Shown here: in pieces, positions 8,410 to 40,036 of the stretch
Layout: every line of letters starts with the position of its first letter
Position numbering within the stretch: position 1 is the stretch's first letter
Origin: Phycisphaera mikurensis
GTDB lineage: Bacteria; Planctomycetota; B15-G4; JADJEK01
Length of the DNA stretch: 45,133 nucleotides
Direction: 5' to 3'
NCBI GenBank assembly: GCA_020723465.1
Contig: DYIW01000002.1
Location: 7,048-52,180, forward strand
Notes under the pieces: model-generated
Told to the model about the DNA's origin: nothing
The model's input: only the letters and a program-made list of their open reading frames with translations
Databases searched by the model: none
Position numbers and translations under genes: made by a program

Positions 8410-9858
8410 TCAGTAGCGGAAGGTGCGCTTCTCGATCTTCGTCTCGAACGGTCCCACCTGGTACTGGCACGCGATGACGTACTCGACGCCCTTCTTGGGG
8501 CCGCTCCATGCGGCCGAGCAGCTAAAGCCTCACCCGTACTTGAAGGTGCCCTGGGCGACATTCTCACCCGCGGCCGTGACGATGGTGTAGCTCGGTTCCG
8601 CCGGGCGGGCCCTGCTGCTCTGCGAGAGGACGACCGAGCTCTTCTTGCCCGAGACGAGCTGGAGGTCGGTCAGGAGCTCCTGAGCCCGTCCCTGGACGTT
8701 GAACCCGAGGTCGGCCTCAGTCGCGCCGGTCTCCTGCATGTTGCGCAGGGACCATTCAGACACCTGCGCCACGGGCAGGTAGGGCTCGCCGAACTCGAGC
8801 AGGGCCTCGGCGCCGGGCGCGACGCTCAGGAAGGGCGTGGCGCCGCTGCCTGCGGCCTCGAGCCGCCAGAGGTCGCCCTCCTTGCCGCTCTGCAGCAGCG
8901 CGTAGCGGAGCAGCCGCCAGTCGCCGGCCGGGATCCTGGGATTGACCGGCCGGTGCATCATGACGCAATGCGCGAAGTTCCGCTCGAGCAGGGTCAGGCG
9001 CTCCGGCGCCTGGGAGAGCTTGAGCGGCACGATCTCGTCCTCTACCGGCGCGAGCGCCAGCTTCCTGGCGGCCGTGTCGACCTTCACCGTGAACGCCTTC
9101 TCGCCGAGGATCAGGAGATCGCCCAGCAGAAACTCGTCCGCTCGCGACATCTTCTGCTCGGCCGTGAGGTACAGGCTGTCCCCCTGCGCGTAGATCGGCT
9201 GATCCGCGGACACGTACAAGTTCTCGGGGATGCGCGCCGTGTCGGAGAAGACTCCGTTGCAGTCGCCGTCCCCGAGCATGACCTGGTAGGTGGCGCCGTC
9301 CAGCGTGAACGAGCCGGCGTAGTGGCAGGCGGTGTCGACGCCGAAGTAGATGAAGCGCGCGGCGTCGCCGCCGTCCTCCTGGTTCTGCCCCTGCAGGCGG
9401 AAGCCCAGCCGGTAGGGCAGGACTGCGCCGCCGAGGCGGTATTCGACCGAGACCTCGTCGTCGAAGGAGACGTAGTACTGCTCGATGTCGCCGAAGCGGG
9501 CCAGATCTCCCACGAGGACCGGGTCGTCCGTGAGGTCGCCGTTGTCGTTCCGGTCGAAGCGGATGCGGTTGTAGAAGCCGTCGTCCGCCGCGACGCGATC
9601 AAGCACGGCCAGGAAGTCGGTCTCGCCGAGGGTCACGGTTGCGAAGAGCGGCCGCGCGCCGGTCAAGTCCGGCAGGTTCCAGTCGCCGCCGGGACAGTCG
9701 GGTGAAGGCTGCGCGTGGGCGCTCCCCCAGGGATGGACAGCGTCCTTGTCGTCGAGGTTCTGCCGGTACTCGAGCGCCACCTCCAGCGTCTGCGCGGGCG
9801 CGAGGCCGCACAGCAGCAAAAGCAGCGCGAGGGACCGGACCGGGAATCCACAGATCAT
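8410..9858 (-). CDS. Exported putative selenoprotein, YG-U-GFxC family paralog 1 (482 aa, Sec codon at 8530-8532)
   Basis: Signal peptide and DxNxNGDLTDD motif. The frame continues past TGA: ...GTFKYG-U-GFSCSAAWSGPKKGVEYVIACQYQVGPFETKIEKRTFRY*. This extension matches the post-UGA extension of 15729..17198, and a SECIS-like hairpin follows. Confidence 0.85.
8490..8532 (-). promoter_or_regulatory. Candidate bacterial SECIS element
   Basis: UGA-14 nt-GGCCGC[AUGGA]GCGGCC; the loop starts 20 nt after the UGA. Confidence 0.7.
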
Positions 9859-10026
9859 CTTCCAGCCTCCTTTCTGGGTGAACGATCCAGCATATCAGGT
9901 TGTGCACGGGCTGCCAGCCGCCAGGGGGCGGGCGGCGCGTCCCCTGGCCCGGTGGTCGCTACCCGGCGAGGCTCTCGACGCCTACGATCGACGGGGCAGC
10001 GTGGCCGTGTACGGAGGGTGGCAAGC

Positions 10027-10719
10027 ATGGACCGAATCGCCGTGACCGTTGCCGCTGGCGTCGTGTTGCTGTTCGTGACCGGAGGCTGCGCGCGGAAGGA
10101 AGAACGTCCACCGGCCGCCGAGGGAACCTTCGCGATTTCCGGCTTGCCGGCCGAGATGACGGTGACGCAGCGATCCACGACGGCGGTCCCGGGATCGGAC
10201 GGGCGCGTGCGCGTGACCGTCGATGACGTCACGCGCGGCCAGGTGACGGTCACGGTGCTCGCCGAGGATGGGAGCGCGCTTGCCGGTCCGACGTCTCTTT
10301 GCCCGGCAGACCGCGTGCGATTCGCGGCGGGCGGGGGCGCCTACGTGCTGCAGCTCGAGGCGCTGGACAACGCGCTGGTGGGCGAGGACCACGCCACCCT
10401 TGTGATCGCCGCCGCGGAGGCCGGCCCGCCGGAGCGCGAGAAGATCGAGCGGCTGCTCGCGTTCGTGGCGTCGATGCAGGACGCGGTCTTCATCCGCAAC
10501 GGCGCCGAGTATCCGGCCGCGGAGGCCGCCGACCATCTGCGCTGGAAATGGGAGGCGGCCGGCGCCCGCATCCGCACGGCCGAGCAGTTTATCGAGGAGA
10601 TCGCGACGCGGTCCTCGGCCAGCGGAGAGGCCTACCAGATCCGGCTCAAGGACGGCGTGCTCGTGCCCGCGGGCGAGTACCTGAAAGAGCGGCTGGCCGA
10701 GATCAATGAGAACGGCTAG
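10027..10719 (+). CDS. Lipoprotein with C-terminal DUF5329 (YfeK-like) domain
   Basis: Lipobox-like VTGGC. C-terminal EREKIERLL...FIRNGAEYPAAEAADHLRWK...TAEQFIEEIATRSSASGEAYQI is recognisable as DUF5329. Confidence 0.75.
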   Translation: MDRIAVTVAAGVVLLFVTGGCARKEERPPAAEGTFAISGLPAEMTVTQRSTTAVPGSDGRVRVTVDDVTRGQVTVTVLAEDGSALAGPTSLCPADRVRFAAGGGAYVLQLEALDNALVGEDHATLVIAAAEAGPPEREKIERLLAFVASMQDAVFIRNGAEYPAAEAADHLRWKWEAAGARIRTAEQFIEEIATRSSASGEAYQIRLKDGVLVPAGEYLKERLAEINENG

Positions 10720-11536
10720 CGGGCGGCGCCTGCGGCCGCGAGCGCGGCGTGCGCGGCTTGGGCCCGCGCTGCACGCACACGGTCTGGCACTCGTGGCAGA
10801 CCACGCAGTCGAGGGCGCGGCTGGCGGGAACGCCCGCGCGGAAGCGCTCGGAGGGCTTGCCTTCCATGGGACAGACCTTGTTGCACTTCTCGCACTTGAG
10901 GCATTCGAACTTGGCCGGGCTGACGCTCCACAGGCTGACGTGATTGAAGGGCGCGAGCATGGCGCCGAGCGGGCACAGGACGCGGCAGAAGCCGCGCTCG
11001 AAGAAGAGCACGAGCAGCAGCACGAGGACGAGCACGCCTAGCTTGATCGCCGTGGCCAGGCTGATCGCGGCGCCGCCGATCAGGTTGGGGATCGTGACCT
11101 GGAGCGCGGAGGCGGGGCAGACGCGGCAGAAGGACCAGAGGGTCTCGGCGCCGAAGAACCAGGGCAGAGTGAAGATGGTGAGCAGGAGCACCAGGTACTT
11201 GATGTACGTGGTCCAGGCCGGCAAGGAGAGCTTGGGCGTGGGGATCTTGTGCAGCAGGTCCTGCAGGAAGCCGAAGGGGCACACCCAGCCGCACAGCAGG
11301 CGGCCGAGCAGCGCGGCCAGCAGCAGGAAGAGGCCGAGCGTCAGATAGGGGAGGACGTGCCAGCCCGAGTAATGCACGAAGATGCCCATCGGGCAGGCGA
11401 ACCAGGCGAGCGCGCATGAGTGACAGCTCAATACCGGCGCGCAGAACCACTTGAGCTGGAGGGCGGGGCTCCAGGAGCTATGCAGCAGCAGGAGGGAGAA
11501 GGTCTGCACCCACCTCCTGGTCTTCTGGATCATCAT
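10703..11536 (-). CDS. Membrane 4Fe-4S binding protein (NapH/MauN-like)
   Basis: CHSC-x6-CP, CGWVCPFG, CRVCP and FCRVLCPLG motifs, several TM segments, and two ferredoxin motifs (CLKCEKCNKVCP, CVVCHECQTVC). Lies directly downstream of selB. Confidence 0.85.
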   Translation of the reverse strand: MMIQKTRRWVQTFSLLLLHSSWSPALQLKWFCAPVLSCHSCALAWFACPMGIFVHYSGWHVLPYLTLGLFLLLAALLGRLLCGWVCPFGFLQDLLHKIPTPKLSLPAWTTYIKYLVLLLTIFTLPWFFGAETLWSFCRVCPASALQVTIPNLIGGAAISLATAIKLGVLVLVLLLVLFFERGFCRVLCPLGAMLAPFNHVSLWSVSPAKFECLKCEKCNKVCPMEGKPSERFRAGVPASRALDCVVCHECQTVCVQRGPKPRTPRSRPQAPPASRSH

Positions 11537-13613: not shown

Positions 13614-15029
13614 TCATGCGTCTGCGCGCGCCGCGCGCCGCAGGGCTGCATGCACCAGCGCGTCCTCGCCGGCGAGGAGCGTGCGCATGTCGAGGATCAC
13701 CTCCTCCTCGCTGATGCGCGCGATGACGGGCGGCTCGTTCTGGCGCAGGAGCTGGCTCAGCCGGTCGGGGGAATGCCGCGCGCTCCGCACGGCCAGCACG
13801 TAGGTCTTGAGCGGCGTCGCCGGCATGGAGCCGCCGCCCGCGGCGCTCTCGTCCTCCTTGACGCGCGCCTCCAGGGGCAGGCGGTCGGCGTCGATGCGCT
13901 TCTTCAGGCGCTGCGCCCTCCGGCGCAAGTCGGCCGGGTCGGCCGCCAGCATGCGCAGGGTCGGGTGGTTCTCCAGCAGCGTCTCCTCGTCCAGGAACAG
14001 GCGCAGCGTCTGCTCGAGGGCGAGGTCGGTGAGCTTGCACACGCGCATCATGCGGGCGAAGGGGTGCTTCTTGATGCGCGCGACCAGCTCGGCGCGGCCG
14101 ACCACGATGCCGGCCTGCGGCCCGCCGATGAGCTTGTCGCCGCTGAAGCAGACGACGTCCGCGCCGGCGGCGATGCTCTCCTGCACGGTCAGCTCTTTCG
14201 GCAGGCCGAAGCGCGTGGTGTCCACCAGGGCGCCGCAGCCGACGTCGTCGATGACGATCACCGGCCGCTTCTGCTTCAGCGCGACCAGCTCGGCGATGGA
14301 CACTTCCTTGGCGAAGCCGACCACGCGGTAGTTGCTCGGGTTGGCGCGCAGGATGGCGCCGGTGCGCTCGTTGAGCGCCTCCTCGTAGTCGCGCAGGTGC
14401 GTGCGGTTGGTGGTGCCGACCGGCACGGCGATGGCGCCGCTCTGGCGGATGCAGTCCGGCAGGCGGAAGGAGCCGCCGATCTCGATGAGCTGGCCGTGCG
14501 AGACGATGACTTCCTTGCCGGCGCAGAGGGCGGAGAGGATGAGCAGCGTGGCGGCGGCGTTGTTGTTGGTGATCATCGCCGCCTCGGCGCCGGTCAGGCG
14601 CGTGAGCAGGCGCTCGCTCATGTAGCAGCGCTTGCCGCGCTTCCCGGTGTCGAGGTCGATTTGCATGCTGCAGCAACGGTCGAGCGAGGCGAGCGCGGCA
14701 GCGGCGCGCGGCGGCAGCACGGCGCGGCCGAGGCCGGTGTGCAGGATCACGCCCGTGGCGTTCACCACCGGCCGCAGGCGGTCCTTCTCCTCCTCGAGGA
14801 CGATGTGGCGCACGCGCTCCACGACCTCGCCCATGGCCGGCAGCTCATCCCCGGGGCGGAAGGCGCGGCGGAACTCGCCGAGCGCGGCCTTGATGGCGTC
14901 CAGGACCAGGGGGCGCGAGAACTCGGCGATCAGCTCGTGGATGCGCGGTTCCTCGAGCACGGCGTAGACCGGGATGAGCCCGCGTCGCGTGTCGTCGCCG
15001 CCGTCTGGGGGGGAGGAGTCTCGTGTCAT
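13614..15029 (-). CDS. selA: L-seryl-tRNA(Sec) selenium transferase
   Basis: VVNATGVILHTGLGRA, NNNAAA, EIGGSFRLPD, VGTTNRTH and the PLP motif FSGDKLIGGPQAG. Confidence 0.97.
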   Translation of the reverse strand: MTRDSSPPDGGDDTRRGLIPVYAVLEEPRIHELIAEFSRPLVLDAIKAALGEFRRAFRPGDELPAMGEVVERVRHIVLEEEKDRLRPVVNATGVILHTGLGRAVLPPRAAAALASLDRCCSMQIDLDTGKRGKRCYMSERLLTRLTGAEAAMITNNNAAATLLILSALCAGKEVIVSHGQLIEIGGSFRLPDCIRQSGAIAVPVGTTNRTHLRDYEEALNERTGAILRANPSNYRVVGFAKEVSIAELVALKQKRPVIVIDDVGCGALVDTTRFGLPKELTVQESIAAGADVVCFSGDKLIGGPQAGIVVGRAELVARIKKHPFARMMRVCKLTDLALEQTLRLFLDEETLLENHPTLRMLAADPADLRRRAQRLKKRIDADRLPLEARVKEDESAAGGGSMPATPLKTYVLAVRSARHSPDRLSQLLRQNEPPVIARISEEEVILDMRTLLAGEDALVHAALRRAARADA

Positions 15030-15044
15030 GGGCCTATGCAAAAG

Positions 15045-15139
15045 TGGCGGAGGTGAATGGGAGTCGAACCCACCTAGCGTCTAAGCGACGATACGACGGC
15101 TTTGAAGGCCGCGGGAGCCACCGGGCCCCGCTCACCTCC
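15045..15139 (-). tRNA. selC: tRNA-Sec (anticodon UCA)
   Basis: 95 nt with an 8-bp acceptor stem GGAGGUGA/UCACCUCC, anticodon arm GCGGC-CUUCAAA-GCCGU, long variable arm, T arm GUGGG-UUCGACU-CCCAU and encoded GCCA end. Directly upstream of selA. Confidence 0.97.
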
Positions 15140-15169
15140 GCATGTTGTCTGCGCGGCGGCCGCCGATCC

Positions 15170-15198
15170 CTTCTACTTGCGCCCGCTCCTGCCGTCAA
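15170..15198 (-). promoter_or_regulatory. Putative sigma70 promoter of selC-selA-selB
   Basis: TTGACG-N17-TAGAAG, about 30 nt upstream of tRNA-Sec. Confidence 0.55.
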
Positions 15199-15229
15199 GG
15201 CAGCCCGGCCGCCCGGCCGGAGCGGGAGG

Positions 15230-15258
15230 TTGCCGCGTCGTCGCTCGTGCGGTAGCAT
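15230..15258 (+). promoter_or_regulatory. Putative divergent sigma70 promoter for the two selenoprotein genes
   Basis: TTGCCG-N17-TAGCAT, back-to-back with the selC promoter. Confidence 0.5.
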
Positions 15259-15349
15259 CCTGGACGCAGGCAGCCGCCGTTCCGGCCGCGCGGGTCGTTC
15301 CTCCGCGCCGGGGGGCGCTTGCCAGGACCGTCCGGAGGTGCGGCGTTTC

Positions 15350-15631
15350 ATGGCGGCAGGACCCTGGGTCAGGAAGTCGGCGGCTGCCGTCATTCTCGCC
15401 GGGAGCGTGGTGCTGATCGCGGCCGCGCGCGAGCGCTCGTACGACGTGCGCGTGCTGGACGCCGACGAGCTGGCCGAGGTGCTGGGCGTCGCGCCCTTCG
15501 ATCAGATCAGCGAGACGCAGCTCGCCATCGACGCCACCTTCACCGGCGTCATCCGCAAGGAGGGTGGGCTCTACTCCACCTACGACCGGTCGCAGCCGCG
15601 CAGCAAGCGAGCCTGCCCGACGTGACAGTAG
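15350..15631 (+). CDS. Small membrane-anchored protein with C-terminal C-P-T-U-Q (putative CxxU selenoprotein, 93 aa)
   Basis: ATG 15350 after GGAGG, N-terminal hydrophobic helix, ends ...KRACPT TGA CAG TAG. SECIS-like hairpin at 15641-15659. Confidence 0.7.
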
Positions 15632-15660
15632 TCCTTCCTTGCCGGTCACGGCGACCGGCT
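15623..15660 (+). promoter_or_regulatory. Candidate SECIS element (mostly in the 3' UTR)
   Basis: UGA-15 nt-GCCGGUC[ACGGC]GACCGGC; the loop starts 22 nt after the UGA. Confidence 0.55.
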
Positions 15661-15728
15661 GACCAACTATTGATGCAGCAGAAGCGGCGCGGAGGCGGTG
15701 CGCTCGCACCCCGCGCCGAGGAGCCGAG

Positions 15729-17198
15729 ATGACAGGAGCGTGGAAACGACTCGCGCGGGCGGGCCTGTTCGCGGGCGCGCTCGCCGCGCCGGCCCTGGCC
15801 GAGGAGGTGGCGCTGGAGTACGTGCGCTACCCGGAAGGCGAGCAGGAGGACGAGGCGTTCCTGCCGCGCTTCACCCGCGCCATCGAGGAGATCGCGACCA
15901 GCGCGCCGCGCGGGGACTTCAAGCTGCCGCCGCTCCAGAGCAAGGAGCCCCTGTTCGCGCTCCTCGAGCTGGGCGGGGAGCCGCGGCTGCTCGTCTTCGA
16001 CCGCGCGGACGCCGGCGATCCTTTCTTCAACGTCCTTTACTGCGACGCCGATGGGGACGGCGACCTGACGAACGACCCGGCCCTGAAGAGCGTCGATGCC
16101 GAGGCCTTGCCGGGCTACCTCGAGCTGCCGCCGCTCGATCTGAAGGTGCGCGCGGGCTCCGGCCGCGCGGACTACAGCCTGCGCGTCACACTCACCTCGA
16201 GCGCGCTGCTCGAGGGCGGGGAGCTGAGCGACCCGCTCGACCTCGAGGACCTTTCCCTGCAGATCACCCCCAACTGCTGCTACGCGGGCGAAGCGGCCTG
16301 CGCCGGCGGCGCCTGCCGCCTGCTGCTCGCCGACGCGAACGTCAACGGGCGCTTCGACGACGTGGTTCGGCTCGACTCTGACGGCTACGAACCGTTCCAG
16401 GCCATCGAGCCCGCGGGCGACCTGCTCTACCTGACCACCGCGGGCACAGTCGAGGCAAGCGACTTCTGCGCGCTCGGGAACGTGCTCGCGCTCGGCCAAG
16501 ACGTGTTCCAGGTGAAGGTCGACGCGGCCGCGCGGAAGCTCGTGCTCGAGCTTTGCGCCGACGCCAGCGCGACCCTCGACCTGCCGCAGGACTGCGAGCG
16601 CCTCTGCCTCGCCTCCGAGGACGGCGGAACGTACGTGGTTCTGTTCCAGCCGGGCCGGAGCGCCTCCGTCCCTGCCGGGAAGTACCGGGTCGCCGCCTAC
16701 CGGCTGCGGCGCGCCGACGCCGAGGGCGACGTGAGGAGCCTGGCCGCGGCCGCCACGCCGCGCACGCCTTTCTTCATGGCGGCAGCGGGCGCGTCCACGG
16801 CCGTGGCCTTCGGCGAGCCCTTCGCGCCGGCGGCGCGCGTGCCGCCGAGCGCCTACGAGGAGGCCGCGGGCGCGACACCGGAATCCGTGCCGGTCGAGTT
16901 CCGCATCGACGGCAGCGCCCAGGAGGTCGTCACCGACCTCAGGCGCGTCTCGGGCAGCGCGACCAAGATCGAGATGGACGGGGTGAAGACGCACCTGCCG
17001 AAGGCGCCGGCCTACGTGATCCTGTCCGCGGCCGGGAAGATCGCTGCGCGCGGCGCCTTCGAGTATGGCTGAGGCTTCACCTGCTCGGCCACATGGGCTG
17101 GCCCAGAAGCGCAGACCAAGTACGTCGTCGTGTGCACCTACCAGGTGGGGCCCTTCGCCAGCGCGAAGGTGAAGGAGGAGATCGCGCCCTTCCCGTAG
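15729..17198 (+). CDS. Exported putative selenoprotein, YG-U-GFxC family paralog 2 (489 aa, Sec codon at 17070-17072)
   Basis: Signal peptide ending ALA-EE and DADGDGDLTND motif. Reads ...GAFEYG-U-GFTCSATWAGPEAQTKYVVVCTYQVGPFASAKVKEEIAPFP*. Collinear with 8410..9858 on both sides of the UGA. Confidence 0.85.
17070..17110 (+). promoter_or_regulatory. Candidate bacterial SECIS element
   Basis: Lower stem GCUUC/GAAGC and upper stem GGCCA[CAUGGGC]UGGCC; AUGG starts 20 nt after the UGA. Confidence 0.65.
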
Positions 17199-17268
17199 TC
17201 CTGCAGGCGCGTCCGAGCGCAACCTGATCGACGGGGTGTGCTCCTAACATTGAGCGGCTACCGGGGTC

Positions 17269-17340
17269 TCGTGCCCGTGCCCGTGCCCGACGGTAGCGAA
17301 CGCCATGACCCGCTTCGATCGGGCACGGGCACGGGCACGA
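17269..17340. repeat. Perfect 22-bp inverted repeat built from (GTGCCC)3
   Basis: TCGTGCCCGTGCCCGTGCCCGA (17269-17290) and TCGGGCACGGGCACGGGCACGA (17319-17340), with a 28-nt spacer. Confidence 0.9.
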
Positions 17341-17565
17341 AACAGCCAGCCCGCCTGCTCAGGGTCGCACGCAGACCCGCGCAATCGACTTCCTCTATCA
17401 GCGCGATTCGCCGTTTCTCTTTCGCGGCGCCGAGATGGGGGAGGCGGTGCCGCCGCGCACCGGGAACGGCCCGAAAGCGGCGCTCGGCCCGCAAATTGCA
17501 TATGGGTTTTGGAGTCGGTACGCTCGCTCGTTCGCTTCCGGCGCCAGCCAGGTGGAGTTGGACCA

Positions 17566-19671
17566 ATGACCAGGAACCTGTACGTCACGATCAACGAGAC
17601 CCGCAGCGGCAAGAGCGCCATCTCCCTGGGGCTGATGGAGTTCATGGAAGGGACGATCCAGCGCGTCGGCTTCTTCCGGCCGATCGCGCGCATGCATGAG
17701 CGCGGCGCGGCCCTCGACGCGAACATCGACCTGATCCGCAGCCACTTCCGGCTCGAGGATCCGCCCGAGCTGATGTACGGCGTGTCGGCCAAGACCGCCG
17801 AGGAGATGGTCGCGCGCGGCCGCTTCGACGACCTGATCGAGACGATCATCGAGCGCTACAAGGCGTACGAGGAGCAGTGCGACTTCGTCCTCATCGAGGG
17901 CACGAACTACGAGGGCGTGACCTCGTGGTTCGAGTTCGACACCAATGCCATCATCGCCCGCAACCTGGGTGCGCCGGTGCTGATGATCTTCAAGGCCAAG
18001 GATCGCACGATCGACGAGATCGTCTCGTCGGCGGTCATGAGCAAGGAGCAGTTCGAACTGCGCGGCTGCGAGCTGAAGGCGGCCATGGTCAACATGGTCG
18101 ATCCCGACCGCCTGCGCGAGATCCGCACCACCCTGCAGGAGCGCATGTCCCGCGAGGGAATCGACCTCGTGGGCGTCTTCCCCGAGGAGAAGCTGCTCGC
18201 CTGCCCCACGGCCGCCGAGGTCATCACCGAACTCGGCGGCACGGTCGTCTACGGCGAGAAGTACCTGGACAACCTGGCCTCGGGCTTCGTCGTGGCGGCG
18301 ATGAAGCTGGACAACTGCCTGGAGCGCATCCCCGCGGGAGCGCTGGTGATCACACCCGGCGACCGCCAAGACATCATCGCAGGCCTGATGGCGGCGCAGA
18401 TCTCGACCACCATGCCGAACATCGCCGGCATCGTGCTCACCGGCGGCTTCCTGCCCACGCCGCCCATCGACCGGCTCATCAAGGGGCTGCGGTCGGTGCG
18501 CGTGCCCATCATCTCGGTGCAGGAGAACACCTTCGAGACGGCGATGGCTCTGAACCAGATCAACGCGGTGATCCGGCCGGCGAACCACCGCAAGATCGAC
18601 ACCGCACTGTCGCTGTTCGCGGCCAACGTCGACGCCGCGCGTTTGACGGCGGTGCTTGCGGTCGAGGCGCCGCAGGTGCTCACGCCCAAGCTCTTCCTGC
18701 ACAAGGTGGTGCACATGGCCGCCGCGAACAAGAAGCGCATCGTCCTGCCCGAGGCGCTGGAGGAGCGCATCCTGCGCGCCGTGGAGGTCCTGGAGCGCCG
18801 CGACGTGGTGGACGTGATCCTCCTGGGCGAGGAGGAGAAGATCCGCGCGCGCGCCGACGAGCTCAAGCTGCAGCTCGGCGACGCGCGCATCGTCAACCCG
18901 GCGGAGCAGCCGGACTTCGAGGACTACGTCGAGACCTACTTCGAGCTGCGCAAGCACAAGCAGATCACCAGGGACATCGCGCGCGACACCATGGTCGATC
19001 CGGTCTTCTACGGCACGATGATGGTCTACAAGGGCCACGCCGACGGCATGGTCTCCGGGTCGATCACGACCACGCGCGAGACGCTCCGGCCGGCCTTCGA
19101 GTTCATCAAGACCCGGCCGGGTATCTCGCTGGTCTCGAGCGTCTTCTTCATGTGCCTGGATGACCGTGTGCTCGTCTACGGCGACTGCGCGGTGAACCCC
19201 AATCCCACGGCCCAGGAGCTGGCCGAGATCGCCGTGTCCTCGGCCGACACCGCGCGCGCCTTCGGCATCGAGCCGGCGGTGGCCATGCTCTCCTATTCCA
19301 CCGGCAAGTCGGGCACGGGCAGCGACGTGGAGAAGGTGGCCGAGGCCACGCGCCTGGCGCAGAAGCTGCGCCCCGACCTGGCCATCGAGGGGCCGCTGCA
19401 GTACGACGCCGCCATCGACGCCGGCGTGGCCAAGACCAAGCTGCCGGGCAGCAAGGTGGCGGGCCACGCCACCGTGTTCATCTTCCCCGACCTCAACACC
19501 GGCAACAACACCTACAAGGCGGTGCAGCGCTCGGCGCACGCCATCGCCGTGGGGCCGGTGCTGCAGGGCCTGAAGAAGCCGGTGAACGACCTGAGCCGCG
19601 GCTGCACCGTGCCGGACATCGTCAACACGGTCGCGATCACCGCCATCCAGGCGCAGAGCGTCGGCGACTGA
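17566..19671 (+). CDS. pta: Phosphate acetyltransferase (long form with AAA_26/DRTGG N-terminus)
   Basis: SGKSAISLGLM, TPGDR, YGDCAVNP, GPLQYDAA, FIFPDLNTGNNTYKAVQR and PVNDLSRG motifs. Confidence 0.95.
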   Translation: MTRNLYVTINETRSGKSAISLGLMEFMEGTIQRVGFFRPIARMHERGAALDANIDLIRSHFRLEDPPELMYGVSAKTAEEMVARGRFDDLIETIIERYKAYEEQCDFVLIEGTNYEGVTSWFEFDTNAIIARNLGAPVLMIFKAKDRTIDEIVSSAVMSKEQFELRGCELKAAMVNMVDPDRLREIRTTLQERMSREGIDLVGVFPEEKLLACPTAAEVITELGGTVVYGEKYLDNLASGFVVAAMKLDNCLERIPAGALVITPGDRQDIIAGLMAAQISTTMPNIAGIVLTGGFLPTPPIDRLIKGLRSVRVPIISVQENTFETAMALNQINAVIRPANHRKIDTALSLFAANVDAARLTAVLAVEAPQVLTPKLFLHKVVHMAAANKKRIVLPEALEERILRAVEVLERRDVVDVILLGEEEKIRARADELKLQLGDARIVNPAEQPDFEDYVETYFELRKHKQITRDIARDTMVDPVFYGTMMVYKGHADGMVSGSITTTRETLRPAFEFIKTRPGISLVSSVFFMCLDDRVLVYGDCAVNPNPTAQELAEIAVSSADTARAFGIEPAVAMLSYSTGKSGTGSDVEKVAEATRLAQKLRPDLAIEGPLQYDAAIDAGVAKTKLPGSKVAGHATVFIFPDLNTGNNTYKAVQRSAHAIAVGPVLQGLKKPVNDLSRGCTVPDIVNTVAITAIQAQSVGD

Positions 19672-31554: not shown

Positions 31555-33951
31555 GTGGCAGGACGCATCGGGGTCTTCGTCTGCGAGTGCAAGGGGCAGG
31601 TAACGGGGACGATCGACGTGGTGCGCGTGGCGGCGGCCGCGCGCGCCTTGCCCGACGTGGAGTTCGCCGAGCAGGTCGACATGCTCTGCGGCGAGGCCGA
31701 CCTCGGCGTCGCGGTGCGCCGCCTGCGCGACCGCGGCTGCGACCGCATGCTGTTCGCCGGCTGCTCGCCGCGTTCCTCGCTGAAGTTTCCGGAAGAGCGC
31801 ATCGCGCGCGTGATGGGGGGCCTGGGGCAGCCTGACGCGCTGTTCGAGGTGGCGAACATCCGCGAGCAGTGCGCCTGGCAGCACGCGGACCGCGATCTCG
31901 CCACGCGCAAGGCCGTGGATCTGGTGCGCATGGCGCACGCGCGCCTCCTGACCCTCGAGCCGCCGCCCGAGCCCGTGCCCCTGCCCGGCCGCGCGCTGGT
32001 GGTGGGAGGCGGGCCCGCGGGCCTGCAGGCGGCGAAGGACCTGGACGCGGTCGGCGTCGACGTGACGCTGGTGGAGCGCCGGCCCTGGCTCGGCGGCCGG
32101 CTCTGCCAGCTCCTGCGCGTCTACCAGTCCGAGGGGTGGCCGTCGGTGTGCGACAGCTCCTGCGTCGGGCCGGTGCAGTGTAAGGGCGTGCTGCTCTCCG
32201 AGCGCATCCAGGCCTACACGCGCGCCCGCGTGACCGCCGTGGAGCGCGTCGACGGCCGCTTCCGCGTGACCATCGCCGCGGCGCCCGAGCACGTGGATCC
32301 CGCGCGGTGCATCTCCTGCGGCGAGTGCGCGCGCGTCTGCCCGGAGGAGACGCCGCGCCTGGCAGACGAGGGGTTGTCGCGGCGCAAGGCGATCGACAAG
32401 GAGTTCGAGCGGGCGCTGCCCGATTCCTACTCGATCGTGGAGGAGGCGTGCACGCGCTGCGGCGCGTGCGTGCCGGCCTGTCCCACGCAGGCAATCGACC
32501 TCGAGCGCGCGCCGCGGCGCTTCACCGTGGATTACGGTGCCGTGTTCCTGGCTGCGGGCGTCGACGCCCTCGACCTCGCGGCCTACCCGCAGTACCTGCG
32601 TTCGCACCCGAACGTGGTCAGCGGCATCGAGTTCGAGCAGATCATGGCGCGCGGCTTCAAGCGCCCCTCGGACGGCGGCGTCCCCGAGCAGGTCGTCTTC
32701 GTGCAGTGCGCCGGCTCACGCGCCGGCCCGGACAAGGAAGTGGGCGGCGTGCCCTACTGTTCCAAGACGTGCTGCGCGGTGACGGTCAAGCAGGTGGACC
32801 GCATGGCCGCGGCCAACCCGGCCATCGAGGCCACGGTGGTCTACTACCGCGACATGCGCACCTACGAGCGCGCGCTCGAGTCCCTGTACCAGAACCTGCG
32901 GAACGTCGGCATCGAGTTCGTGAACGGCGAGGTGACGGGTATCGAGGGCGCGGGCGACGGCCGCCTGGCGCTGCAGGTCGCTCCTTATGTGCCGGGCGAG
33001 GCCGGCGAGGAACCCGAGCCGCTTCGCCTCGAAGCCGACCTGGTGGTCTTGGCCGCGGCGCAGGAGCCGGCGCGCGGCTCGGCCGAGCTGTTCCGCATGT
33101 TCGGCGCCGGCACCGATCGCCACGGCTTCCCCATCGAGAACCAGCCGCGCCTGTTCCGGCCGACCGAGTCGCTGGTGAACCGCGTGTTCGTGGTGGGCGA
33201 GTCGACCGGGCCGAAGGCGGTGCAGCAGTGCGCGGAGCAGGGCAGCGCCGCGGCCATGCGCGCGCTGCCGGAGCTGCTCGCCGGCCGAACGCTGCCGCCG
33301 CGCTTCGCCAGCCGCATCGACCCGCGTCGCTGCATCACGTGCCGCGTCTGCGAAACGGTCTGCCCGCACGGCGCCATCCGCATCACGGAAGAGGGCGCCT
33401 GCAGCGATCCGGCCTTCTGCCAGGCCTGCGGCCTGTGCGCCGCGGCCTGCCCGGTGCACGCGGCCGAGCTCAGGAACTTCAGCGACCGGCAGATCCTGGC
33501 CCAGGCGGAAGTCGCGTTCCGCGAGCTGCCGGCGGGGGAGCCGCGCATCCTGGCGATGCTCTGCTACTGGTGCTCGTACAGCGCCGCCGACTTCGCCGGC
33601 GTGGAGCGCGTCAAGGCGCCCGCGAACTACCGCGTCATCCGCATGCGCTGCTCCAGCTCGGTGAACACCGGCCTGGTGCTGGAGATGTTCAGGATGGGCG
33701 CCGACGGCATCCTGGTGGCCGGCTGCCCGGAGAAGAGCTGCCATCACCTGTGGGGCAACTTCCTGGCGGACAAGCGCACCGACCTGGCGCGCGCGCTCCT
33801 CTCGCAGCTCGGCGTCGAGCCCGGCCGCCTGCGCTTCGAGTACATCGGCGCGCCCATGCAAGCGAAGCTCATGACGGCCTTGCGCGACATGGACAAGAAG
33901 CTGCGCCAGCTCGGCCCGAACCCGGCGGCGCGGGCGGCGGGAGGCGCGTGA
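31555..33951 (+). CDS. Heterodisulfide reductase subunit A-like flavoprotein fused to an MvhD domain
   Basis: GVFVCEC, AGCSPR, NIREQCAW, GGGPAG (FAD) and QCAGSR...YCSKTCC motifs, four ferredoxin motifs, then MvhD-type CYWCSY...RCSS...GCPEKSCH. Confidence 0.9.
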   Translation: MAGRIGVFVCECKGQVTGTIDVVRVAAAARALPDVEFAEQVDMLCGEADLGVAVRRLRDRGCDRMLFAGCSPRSSLKFPEERIARVMGGLGQPDALFEVANIREQCAWQHADRDLATRKAVDLVRMAHARLLTLEPPPEPVPLPGRALVVGGGPAGLQAAKDLDAVGVDVTLVERRPWLGGRLCQLLRVYQSEGWPSVCDSSCVGPVQCKGVLLSERIQAYTRARVTAVERVDGRFRVTIAAAPEHVDPARCISCGECARVCPEETPRLADEGLSRRKAIDKEFERALPDSYSIVEEACTRCGACVPACPTQAIDLERAPRRFTVDYGAVFLAAGVDALDLAAYPQYLRSHPNVVSGIEFEQIMARGFKRPSDGGVPEQVVFVQCAGSRAGPDKEVGGVPYCSKTCCAVTVKQVDRMAAANPAIEATVVYYRDMRTYERALESLYQNLRNVGIEFVNGEVTGIEGAGDGRLALQVAPYVPGEAGEEPEPLRLEADLVVLAAAQEPARGSAELFRMFGAGTDRHGFPIENQPRLFRPTESLVNRVFVVGESTGPKAVQQCAEQGSAAAMRALPELLAGRTLPPRFASRIDPRRCITCRVCETVCPHGAIRITEEGACSDPAFCQACGLCAAACPVHAAELRNFSDRQILAQAEVAFRELPAGEPRILAMLCYWCSYSAADFAGVERVKAPANYRVIRMRCSSSVNTGLVLEMFRMGADGILVAGCPEKSCHHLWGNFLADKRTDLARALLSQLGVEPGRLRFEYIGAPMQAKLMTALRDMDKKLRQLGPNPAARAAGGA

Positions 33952-38200: not shown

Positions 38201-40036
38201 CTACTCCTCCTTCTCCTCCTCGAGCAAGCCGAGCTTCTTCAGGGCCTCGTCGATGCGGTTCTCGCCGAAGCCGTACCACGCGTCCACGACCTTGCCCTCG
38301 CGGTCGATGACGTAGGTCATGGGAACGGCGCTCATGCCGAGGGTCTCGTACTTGCTGGTCACTTCCCAGGCCTTCTGCGAGGGGTCGAGCACGTTCGGGA
38401 AGGTGACCTTGTTCTCCTTCATGTAGTCGATGGCGATCTGGCGGTCATCGGCCTCGTTCAGGCCGAGGACGACCAGGCCCTTGTCGCGGTACTTCTCGTA
38501 GATTGCTTGGAGACTCCCTGTCTCCTCTCGGCAAGCGGGTCAGCCACAGCGCCACTTGTTCAGCCAGACCACGTTGCCGCGATAGTCCGAGAGGCGGATC
38601 GTGCTGCCGTCCACGGCCGGAAGCTCGAAGTCGGGCGCCTCGGCGCCCGGCGGCAGCAGGCCTTCCTCGATGGGCGGGAAGTCCCACTCCTTCCAGCCCT
38701 CGGGCGGCTTCCACTGGAACTGCTCGGGCGCGATCTCCGGGTTGAGCGTCACCTCGGACCAGTCCTCGTACACGAGCAGGTTGAAGCTGACGCGCACCAC
38801 CTCCTCGAGCTTGCGCGGCAGGTGGTCCTTCTTCGACAGCCACAGGTACCAGCTCCGCTGATGGTCCATGATGCTGACTTCGATCTTGTCGCACTCCTCA
38901 TCCGCGACCGCGTCGCTGCCCAGGCTCCGCACCCCGTCCACGTAGGGCTGCAGCGAGTCGGAGTAGCCGTGGAAGGTGCTCGGGTCGAGGATGGTCATCG
39001 ACATGCCGGCGCCCAGGCTGCCGACCTCGTGGCCGATGGAGTGGCGCCCGACCGGCGTGCGCTTCGTCATGTAGTACGAGTCCTTGTACTGCTCGTACTC
39101 CGCGGCGTACTTGCCGCCGTTCTCCTCCCACGGGTAGCGCGGCTTGCCGGGCGGCCAGTAGATCCAGAAGTGGTCGCCGTCGCCCACGAGCACGCCGGTC
39201 AGCTCGCCTTGCTCGTTGCAGACTTCCACGCGCGCGTAGTTCGGCTTCTTCAGCCAGATGCGGTACGTGGCCTTGGAGGGATGCTCGTCCCCCTCCCTGC
39301 CGAACTGGTAGCTGCTGACCCAGGAGAGCGACTCGGCTTCCCACATGGCGTCGATCATCGCGTCATAGAGGGCGCGGCCGGCTGCATCGCCCTCGAACTT
39401 GGGGGAGGGGCTCTCTTCCCCGGCGAACTGCGCGCCCGCGAACTGCGCGCCCGCGACCTGCGCCGGCTCCTCCGCGTCGAGCAGAGCCTGGACATCTTCG
39501 GTCACGTCACAGTTGCAGAAGAACTGCTCCCCGGCGCGCAGAACGTACGCGGCGCCGGATTCCTGGATGCCGGGATCGAGGATGCGGACCGCGCCCTTCT
39601 CGCGATCGACCTCGAAGCCTTTGCCCTCGAGGAGCCGCGCGCCGTTCAGGATCACGCGCACGCTGCCCGCGGCGAGGGGCCGGTGGAAGAGGAACAGCCC
39701 CGGATCGCGCACCCTGCCATGCACGAACAGCATGTCCACCGCGCAGTCGAAGGCGATCTCGCGCAGCAGGAAGATCTTCCCGCACAGGGGATCGTAGGCG
39801 AAGTCCACGCCGTGTTCGAGGGGCTGCATCTTGCTGGTGCGCCCGCCGGCGCAGATCGACACGTTCAGTCCCTCGGCCTCCAGGGGATTCATGAGCGTGA
39901 ACACGCGCGCGTCGTCGGTCGGCTGTGCGTTCGTGCCAACGACCCCCCCCGCCGCGCGCGCGGTTCCAGCGAACGCGGCGAGCAGCAGGAAGAGGGCGGT
40001 CAACGATCTCGCGGGAAGGGCGTGCGGCGCGGACAT
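38201..40036 (-). CDS. Exported LolA-like + TlpA/AhpC-TSA redoxin selenoprotein (611 aa, U-P-A-C active site, Sec codon at 38540-38542)
   Basis: Track ORFs 38540..40036 and 38201..38422 are in the same frame: APDFELPAVDGSTIRLSDYRGNVVWLNKWRCG-U-PACREETGSLQAIYEKYRDKGLVVLGLN...AVPMTYVIDREGKV. The UGA occupies the first Cys position of CxxC. Confidence 0.93.
38503..38542 (-). promoter_or_regulatory. Candidate bacterial SECIS element
   Basis: Lower stem GCUU/AAGC and upper stem GGAGAC[AGGGA]GUCUCC; the loop starts 20 nt after the UGA. Confidence 0.8.
39423..39463. repeat. Short in-frame 15-bp tandem repeat (AQVAG-AQFAG-AQFAG linker)
   Basis: GCGAACTGCGCGCCC twice plus a degenerate copy, at a domain boundary. 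Confidence 0.7.

Follow-up and report, generated by a model that had tools for sequence, protein, structure and literature searches.

A small gene beside tRNA-Sec with a probable penultimate selenocysteine codon, and its conserved neighbours, in a planctomycete genome

A UGA codon, a second stop and a hairpin

The question raised by this locus is whether a TGA codon close to the end of a small gene terminates translation or is read as selenocysteine (Sec, U). The gene lies in a stretch of 45,133 nucleotides (nt), hereafter the window, from Phycisphaera mikurensis (Planctomycetota; GenBank assembly GCA_020723465.1, contig DYIW01000002.1, positions 7,048 to 52,180 of the forward strand), and its open reading frame (ORF) ends AAG CGA GCC TGC CCG ACG TGA CAG TAG. 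A first-pass annotation, made from the sequence alone, had pointed to this ending and proposed that reading the UGA as Sec creates a C-x-x-U motif one residue ahead of the true stop; both the ending and the motif are present as described, and the translation with UGA as Sec is 93 amino acids (aa) long with the C-terminus KRACPTUQ. The features concerned are as follows.

15350..15631, plus strand: candidate small selenoprotein gene, 93 codons plus stop with the ATG at 15350, defined from the sequence, its translation and its homologs
15623..15625, plus strand: UGA very probably read as Sec, residue 92, which would pair with Cys89 as C-x-x-U; TGA in 32/32 distinct loci
15629..15631, plus strand: TAG, the predicted true stop, one codon past the Sec codon
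15641..15659, plus strand: candidate hairpin of the Sec insertion sequence (SECIS) type in the 3' untranslated region (UTR), with a 7-base-pair (bp) stem and a 5-nt loop, ACGGC, starting 15 nt past the UGA

We hold it very probable that the UGA is decoded as Sec, a reading drawn from the comparison of related sequences. A word-indexed search returned 31 homologs of the small protein, 70-117 aa in length, and a HMMER scan of 1.84 billion cluster representatives with its profile returned 133 at E<=0.001, 96 of them at E<=1e-10. Among 162 database homologs, 155 end exactly at C-x-T/S (95 of these at ACPT) and the remaining seven are truncated, frameshifted or divergent at the end, which bears out the earlier expectation that ORF callers would drop the last two residues. 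Conservation of the protein extends to the last residue ahead of the UGA.

DNA was collected for 39 loci, of which four, including the window's own genome, came from searching 401 genomes of a single phylum with the profile, 16 from a species-genome collection and 19 from metagenome contigs, the last two sets by pattern-limited scans; all sources are metagenome-assembled genomes or contigs. Eight duplicates were dropped (L001, L005, L009, L027, L028, L032, L037, L038), giving 32 distinct loci with the window included. These have GC contents of 47-73% and are labelled in the sequence records as Planctomycetota, Phycisphaerales, Hydrogenedentota, Nitrospiraceae, Latescibacterota, Kiritimatiellia and Verrucomicrobiota, at least seven phylum-level groups.

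The tabulation of stop codons in ACPT-ending homologs, which had been set beforehand as the test, came out in favour of Sec: TGA follows C-P-T (in a few cases C-L-T or C-P-S) in every one of the 32 distinct loci, the next in-frame stop stands at +2 in 30 of them (at +1 in L018 and +3 in L004), and a hairpin follows in 31. For the control genes of the same loci (selB, selA, selD and the NapH-like gene described below) the stop was TGA in 32, TAG in 11 and TAA in 10 (n=53), and a second in-frame stop at +2 was present in 8/52. Stop codons therefore drift in these lineages, as the neighbouring genes show, but the TGA of the small gene does not. The codon between the UGA and the second stop takes 12 different forms across the 32 loci, and the conserved position of the second stop is the sole sign of translation past the UGA in the small gene. 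This second stop is TAG in 24 loci, TGA in five and TAA in three, as against only 11 TAG stops in the 53 neighbouring genes, and the base right after the UGA (+4) is A or C in 29/32. A or C at this position are weaker contexts for termination by release factor 2; the preference for TAG and for A or C after the UGA may reflect selection on release-factor competition.

The 7-bp hairpin which had been reported beyond the TAG was found there, its arms being GCCGGTC (15641-15647) and GACCGGC (15653-15659). A GC-rich stem of 5-7 bp starts 15-18 nt past the UGA in 31 of the 32 loci, with the loop consensus A-(U/C/G)-G-G-N closed by C-G. When the 31 hairpins were aligned (A3), 88.5% of the 217 cells were standard pairs and five of the seven pairs had changed on both sides (25 cells), pair 22-34 for example being GC in 18 sequences and AU in 11, and pair 24-32 being CG in 16, UA in eight and UG in six. 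In none of 500 column shuffles was the pairing or the covariation score as high as that observed, pairing fell to 28-69% when the 3' partner was shifted by 1-3 columns, and the inner five pairs were predicted independently by RNAalifold. A covariance model built from the 31 sequences (R1) found the site of the small gene again in each of the 17 sources it was run on (E 1.9e-10 to 6.1e-6). The hairpin does not have the marks of an intrinsic terminator, there being no T-run past it and no terminator-like site predicted in 15000-17400, and Rfam over 14800-16000 gave only tRNA-Sec above its gathering score.

Bacterial SelB binds to a hairpin immediately 3' of the UGA as the ribosome approaches, and translation of the hairpin itself is not required. 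In the small gene, SelB carrying Sec-tRNA(Sec) would bind the 3'-UTR hairpin that starts 15 nt past the UGA, and the ribosome would place Sec at codon 92, add a single residue (Gln here, variable elsewhere) and terminate at the UAG.

The sel genes, the polyferredoxin and a second candidate selenoprotein

The genes surrounding the small gene were located as follows.

15045..15139, minus strand: tRNA-Sec (selC), anticodon TCA; ARAGORN, and Rfam RF01852 at 73.1 bits (gathering score 47, E 8.3e-15)
13614..15041, minus strand: selA, L-seryl-tRNA(Sec) selenium transferase; TIGR00474 at 511.7 bits (cut-off 267.9, E 1.8e-153) and PF03841
11580..13571, minus strand: selB, Sec-specific elongation factor; TIGR00475 at 292.5 bits (cut-off 242.25, E 6.9e-87), with SelB winged-helix and beta-barrel domains
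10703..11536, minus strand: NapH/MauN-like membrane polyferredoxin, 277 aa, directly after selB; two CX3CP motifs and two ferredoxin-type Cys clusters
15729..17198, plus strand: large candidate selenoprotein, 489 aa, stop at 17196-17198, with a predicted Sec codon (TGA) at 17070-17072, position 448; databases annotate 447 aa
17087..17103, plus strand: in-frame SECIS-type hairpin of the large gene, GGCCA, loop CAUGGGC, UGGCC, 14 nt past the UGA

As tRNA-Sec sits 210 nt upstream of the small gene on the opposite strand, the small gene is the first to diverge from it, just as the first-pass annotation had stated. The order on the minus strand is tRNA-Sec, selA, selB, and with selD present elsewhere in the genome the organism has the full Sec machinery. 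The wider neighbourhood was reconstructed from ORF clustering of all loci, family scans and tblastn. A selA, selB or selD gene adjoins the small gene in 29/32 loci; among the others, L021 and L035 have less than 180 nt of upstream flank and L023 has no sel gene in 1.86 kb. In 22 of the other loci selB immediately precedes the small gene in the same orientation, and selD was found in 13/32. Several loci, among them L004 (2-1297) and L010 (3-1007), have a SelD that carries a CMD/AhpD-like domain at its C-terminal end, and the fused AhpD region also weakly matches the models NF041537 and NF045649 for AhpD-domain selenoproteins.

An orthologue of the NapH-like gene stands 40-260 nt past the C-P-T codon in 24 of the 31 other distinct loci (about 1.6 kb in L018), and in 11 loci the gene next after it codes for 390-470 aa. 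Seven loci (the window, L002, L003, L006, L007, L021 and L022) share a variant arrangement in which the small gene, paired with a 447-aa gene, lies next to tRNA-Sec and selA in divergent orientation. Taken across all loci, the comparison shows what appears to be a conserved module of three genes, encoding the small protein, the NapH-like protein and the large candidate selenoprotein, which travels with selD, selB, selA and selC. By the same comparison the UGA, the stop at +2, the hairpin and the linkage to sel genes appear to be under joint selection.

The large gene has the classical signature of a Sec codon. By hhalign (probability 99%, E 9.6e-18) the 447-aa proteins (family A4) are homologous to those of 390-470 aa (family A5); both families are annotated as ending (F/I)EYG, and in all 15 of the loci with that end in the fetched DNA the EYG is followed by TGA. 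Past the TGA the frame is conserved as EYG-U-G-x-x-C-x-x-x-W-x-x-P, the site in the window being GAFEYG-U-GFTC-SATWAGP. Judged from this conservation on both sides of the UGA, the large gene appears to encode a second, previously unrecognised selenoprotein with a U-x-x-x-C motif, which the first-pass annotation had not noticed; it is probably exported or held in the membrane and has a signal-peptide-like N-terminus. In the subfamily not represented in the window (L010, L011, L026, L029, L030, L033-L035) the frame past the Sec encodes a polytopic membrane domain of some 290 aa, so that the database entries of about 390 aa are truncated by roughly 40%; in the L030 orthologue this extension matched no Pfam family and no transporter family. 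The structure of the large protein predicted by AlphaFold2 is all-beta, with tandem beta-sandwich domains (mean predicted local distance difference test score, pLDDT, 85.3; predicted TM-score, pTM, 0.84). It resembles only generic tandem Ig/FN3 sandwiches, the best being 6fwv_A with E 4.8e-5 but a TM-score of 0.11, and no family in NCBIfam or Pfam was matched. Around the small gene of L009, a locus identical in sequence to L003 but with longer flanks, there are three paralogues of the large protein, two downstream and one upstream on the opposite strand.

The hairpins of the large genes have stems of 5-6 bp and, in one subfamily, a loop A-U-G-G-N closed by C-G, and they stand 2 nt closer to the UGA than that of the small gene. 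In an alignment of 15 such sequences (A7), 92.2% of 90 cells are paired, three of six pairs have changed on both sides (22 cells) and 0/500 shuffles match the score; this is weaker evidence than that from the small-gene hairpins, since the covariation lies mostly between subfamilies and the stem is within coding sequence. The type of hairpin found behind the small gene is nonetheless also in use at a bona fide Sec codon 1.4 kb away.

The NapH-like partner shares with the NapH/MauN/NosH/CcoG polyferredoxins of the Fer4_5 type two CX3CP motifs (CGWVCP and CRVLCP) and two ferredoxin-type clusters on a polytopic membrane protein, and it has further invariant cysteines. It differs from NapH itself in that the orthologues of L008 and L014 score 57.5 and 47.8 bits against a TIGR02163 cut-off of 213.05; neither TIGR02163 nor NF007013 was matched at its cut-off, and only Fer4_5 (PF12801) passes. 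No nap, nos or cco genes adjoin it in the fetched loci. The partner is thus NapH-like in its workings yet no equivalog, and it forms a tight subfamily of its own: 400 clusters were found at E<=1e-30, and identities were 54% or higher for the 120 matches listed.

Further Sec sites were predicted elsewhere in the genome, at least nine in all with the two new families included. The selD gene has one in-frame TGA (SCAG-U-AAKL; contig C171, L060), and an in-frame TGA is present in six of the 14 AhpC/TSA-family matches, which rules out a Sec machinery serving only this module. One of the six lies in the window.

38282-38647, minus strand: TlpA/AhpC-TSA-type thioredoxin-fold gene, WRCG-U-PAC, TGA at 38542-38540

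This gene is probably a UxxC selenoprotein of known type. Its hairpin (GGAGAC, loop AGGGA, GUCUCC) has 6 bp and stands 14 nt past the UGA, and the loop AGGGA is that of the small-gene hairpins in L030-L035. Five further AhpC/TSA-family genes, on C199, C35, C60, C44 and C446 (L066-L070), have a single in-frame TGA (FW-U-xxC) and a hairpin. The hairpins of selD and the six AhpC/TSA sites are all GC-rich and start 10-20 nt past the UGA, so the small-gene hairpin fits the Sec sites of this organism in position and size. No FdhA, CMD or Rdx selenoprotein of the Sec type was seen in the genome, which is 92% complete.

Two other genes flank the locus in the window and are not conserved with the module: a DUF5329-domain protein (9715-10719, plus strand) and a long Pta with AAA_26, DRTGG and PTA_PTB domains (17305-19671, plus strand).

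The possible role of the small protein and the alternatives to it

The AlphaFold2 model of the small protein, made with 111 homologs, has a mean pLDDT of 89.8 and consists of a helix (5-27), a compact beta-alpha-beta-alpha-beta-beta domain (30-76) and a basic coil tail (77-93) with a pLDDT of about 76, which agrees with the flexible C-terminal arm that had been suggested from the sequence. Residues D61, T63, F64, G66, S76-T77-Y78-D79-R80, K86, C89, P90 and T91 are invariant or nearly so. The strongly hydrophobic N-terminal helix could serve as a signal anchor or be cleaved off as a signal peptide, and net charge alone favours an N-in/C-out topology in 92/111 sequences. At E<=1 the 18,950 models of NCBIfam release 20.0 gave only chance-level rows for pantothenate kinase and APS kinase and the 24,736 models of Pfam only a chance EccE row; Foldseek found no match in the PDB at E<=0.001, and the best result of a wide VIA-align comparison was a Z of 4.2 over 46 residues. 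The nearest feature neighbours in the ESM Atlas, periplasmic domains of the LpoB/TolB_N/CsgG type (0.87-0.90), serve as leads only.

What such a tail might do is suggested by its partners. The Cys and Sec of C-P-T-U-x, on a flexible basic arm, would cycle between a selenol/thiol and a selenenylsulfide, and the tail would link the Fe-S membrane protein to the large protein, at its U-x-x-x-C site, by moving reducing equivalents or a bound chalcogen (e.g., selenium) between the two. The first-pass annotation had proposed a redox shuttle, and such a role is consistent with Fe-S and selenoprotein partners. When the small protein was modelled in complex with the NapH-like protein, using alignments drawn from protein searches only, the ipSAE was 0.32 (0.40, 0.32 and 0.28 in individual runs) as compared to 0.00 for the best control, with a partner pLDDT of at least 58 and at least 67% of contacts common between runs. 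This result should be considered with caution: in calibration, the passes at ipSAE <=0.60 comprised 18/157 solved complexes and both of the passing mismatches among 215, and a passing score this low is more often wrong than right unless the pairing is likely beforehand, so the predicted complex would add a small increment of weak support. We infer the topology, the selenenylsulfide chemistry, the direction of transfer and the physiological substrate, and we give about an even chance to the tail being a mobile selenol/thiol carrier within a module of three proteins. Our preferred explanation as a whole, a selenoprotein gene whose product is a mobile carrier in a three-gene module linked to sel genes, is somewhat better favoured than not.

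A different role, the supply of selenium itself, survives best among the alternatives. Here the small protein would be a membrane-tethered carrier that binds or reduces selenium and which, together with the NapH-like and large proteins, captures and reduces environmental selenium species and hands selenide on towards SelD. The gene order selD-selB-small gene-NapH-like-large gene seen in many lineages is in keeping with this, as are selB standing directly upstream in 22 other loci, selD in 13/32, the SelD proteins with a C-terminal CMD/AhpD domain, and the lack of Cys forms, which would fit a chemistry that needs Se-Se or Se-S bonds; the polytopic membrane domain of about 290 aa in one subfamily of the large protein could be a conduit. 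However, genes for client selenoproteins often adjoin sel genes simply out of dependence on them, as at fdh/sel loci, and with at least seven other predicted Sec sites elsewhere in the genome the machinery is not for the module alone. The membrane domain, moreover, has no match to a transporter family, and of the known selenium-handling families in the accessible text of PMC5322559 (YedE, YedF, DUF3343) none was recognised in the module. A role in selenium supply is thus possible but unlikely on present evidence. A relay for selenium is made attractive by the position in the sel operon, the SelD-AhpD fusions and the missing Cys forms, although we regard it as tentative; and we would put forward only as a doubtful proposal, of similar standing, that the CPTU-x protein, the NapH-like protein and the EYG-U-G-x-x-C protein constitute an unrecognised fourth block of the sel locus, a membrane relay for selenium capture and reduction which feeds SelD. 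Were that relay real, the Sec pathway would be partly self-provisioning, by way of two obligate selenoproteins, in at least seven phylum-level groups, and these would be the first selenoprotein families in which Cys cannot replace Sec.

Returning to the reading of the UGA as Sec and the carrier function built upon it, several observations weigh against them. Variants ending CPTC, which had been hoped for as support, are absent from all 162 proteins and all 32 loci. As there is no Cys homolog, the usual Sec/Cys criterion does not apply to the small gene, and as only one variable codon follows the UGA, conservation beyond it cannot be shown; the small gene thus offers neither Cys homologs aligned to the Sec nor conserved coding sequence past the UGA. 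These GC-rich genomes use TGA more often than the other two stop codons (60% of controls), and the loci are related and are not independent trials, so the counts overstate their independence. In DNA of 70% GC the folding of the hairpin is by itself unremarkable (z of -0.74 for an 81-nt stretch, 43/200 shuffles being as good or better), and its weight must therefore come from the comparison with the 31 other loci. One sequence, L036, equals L014 minus 21 nt, exactly the hairpin, and retains TGA-ATC-TAG; the loss could stem from collapse of the assembly at a palindrome, or the sequence could be a dead or natural allele without a SECIS. The covariance model gave no significant detection at the large-gene Sec sites, only L034 being matched weakly (E 0.7), and across the whole genome its only match at E<0.01 was to the small gene itself, the next nine full-length matches not being in-frame TGAs of plausible genes; since it misses the large-gene and other sites of the genome, the hairpin class is not shown to be a generic SECIS. 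The model is family-specific and is evidence neither for nor against a generic SECIS. A match to it at window position 32063 (E 0.017) was discarded, the TGA being out of frame within a FAD-type gene. The loops of the other Sec sites differ among themselves (GUC, CGU, GUU, CUC) and yield no single consensus. With respect to the protein, K+R is equal on both sides of the N-terminal helix (2.5 vs 2.3), leaving the topology ambiguous, and the function is drawn from gene neighbourhood and a weak in-silico docking score.

These points leave two other explanations of the UGA to be weighed against its decoding as Sec. The hairpin could be mainly a regulatory element that binds SelB, with UGA-x-stop acting as a selenium sensor which tunes the downstream NapH-like or large gene and the two extra residues being incidental. 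A precedent exists in E. coli, where translation of selAB is controlled by a SECIS-like element; the hairpin lies mostly in short intergenic space, the NapH-like ORF starting 40-80 nt past the C-P-T codon, and the residue following the Sec is not conserved. However, the window and six related loci have the NapH-like gene elsewhere and yet keep both TGA-x-stop and the hairpin, and C89, P90 and T91 are nearly invariant ahead of the UGA, forming C-x-x-U, which argues for selection on the end of the peptide. We therefore consider a purely regulatory hairpin improbable, bearing in mind that a regulatory role and Sec insertion are compatible with each other. Least probable of all is that the UGA is an ordinary stop, the protein ending at ACPT and the tandem stop and hairpin being kept for mRNA stability, as a processing site or similar: TGA is the majority stop of the controls (32/53), tandem stops are not rare in them (14/52 within two codons), a variant without the hairpin exists and a Cys homolog does not, but against this stand a TGA fixed in all loci, even at a genomic GC of 47-50% where adjacent genes end in TAA or TAG, the exact +2 spacing of the second stop in 30/32, a fixed distance from UGA to hairpin that is typical of SelB-dependent sites, physical linkage to selB, selA, selD and selC, and the same build of hairpin at the bona fide in-frame Sec site of the adjacent gene.

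Comparison with known systems

In the literature on bacterial selenoproteins, SECIS elements and sel loci we found no description of the family or the module, although a mention in Haft & Tolstoy 2025, beyond the families listed in a 2026 review, is possible. Neither the small nor the large family appears in the table of the 2026 catalogue of prokaryotic selenoproteins (PMC13188914), in so far as that table is available. We read the small protein as the founder of a new and apparently Sec-only selenoprotein family; together with its neighbour this would make two, neither of which matches a model of NCBIfam release 20.0 or Pfam. The deep-Sep paper states, in its accessible part, that all known selenoproteins now seem to have Cys homologs, and its filter drops candidates which lack them; the small and large families would be exceptions to that rule. 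As neither has a Cys form, both genes fall outside what ORF callers and selenoprotein finders can see. At least 155 database proteins are, on this reading, mis-annotated as ending C-x-T/S, and the annotated neighbour of 447 aa lacks 42 residues here, its counterparts in other lineages about 290. The genes sit within the sel operon even in distant phyla, which makes the module a concrete, testable candidate for an unknown step of selenium handling or for a Sec-dependent redox relay of the envelope.

The nearest counterparts in bacteria are SaoC (NF040734, of the SAO system), KCU-star (DUF466, NF033934) and UXX-star (NF041114, NF041211), which likewise have Sec at or near the C-terminus, are annotated truncated and carry their SECIS past the true stop. 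In SaoC, a Cys-Cys-COOH or Cys-Sec-COOH protein, UGA-UAG is followed by a 7-bp stem with a G-containing loop (bioRxiv 10.1101/2022.07.06.499078), which sets a precedent for a SECIS in the 3' UTR. All three, which were described by Haft and co-workers, appear in Table 1 of the 2026 review (PMC13188914). They bear no sequence relation to the small protein, however, the hidden Markov models of these families being unmatched at E<=1, and the motif differs, C-x-x-U-x-stop in the small protein as against CU-stop or U-x-x-stop in the known star proteins. SaoC occurs mostly in Cys forms, of which the small-protein family has none, and the contexts are different too: SaoC belongs to the SAO locus, whereas the small gene lies in a sel operon with a NapH-like gene and a second candidate selenoprotein.

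With the fdhF-type SECIS of E. coli the small-gene hairpin shares a GC-rich stem 10-20 nt past the UGA and a G in the apical loop; it differs in lying wholly in the 3' UTR and in having the loop A-Y/G-G-G-N rather than GGUC, the loop of the E. coli element.

The first-pass annotation had likened the tail to the C-terminal Sec arm of animal thioredoxin reductase (TrxR). As an analogy for the tail this holds, for the Gly-Cys-Sec-Gly arm of TrxR has a penultimate Sec beside a Cys on a flexible tail with one residue following, but beyond the tail it does not: in TrxR the Cys and Sec are adjacent and sit on a large FAD/NADPH enzyme, whereas the small protein has C-x-x-U and about 90 aa, and no domain of a pyridine-nucleotide disulfide oxidoreductase or other flavoprotein was detected in it with Pfam or NCBIfam. 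A SECIS placed past the stop codon also directs Sec insertion in recombinant TrxR produced in E. coli. Comparable too are eukaryotic SELENOK and SELENOS, small proteins that cross the membrane once; their tail is disordered, either basic or rich in Gly and Pro, with the Sec placed two or three residues from the C-terminus, and SELENOS forms a Cys-Sec selenenylsulfide. They depend, however, on a eukaryotic 3'-UTR SECIS and SBP2 rather than a SelB hairpin by the UGA, and the bacterial protein has a folded alpha/beta domain and no Pfam homology to them at E<=1.

A C-terminal Sec with a SECIS in the 3' UTR is therefore already a known kind of arrangement in bacteria, and the small protein is a new family within that kind. 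What sets it apart from an ordinary addition is that it is seemingly Sec-only, sits within the sel operon in different phyla and has a second new candidate selenoprotein as its partner.

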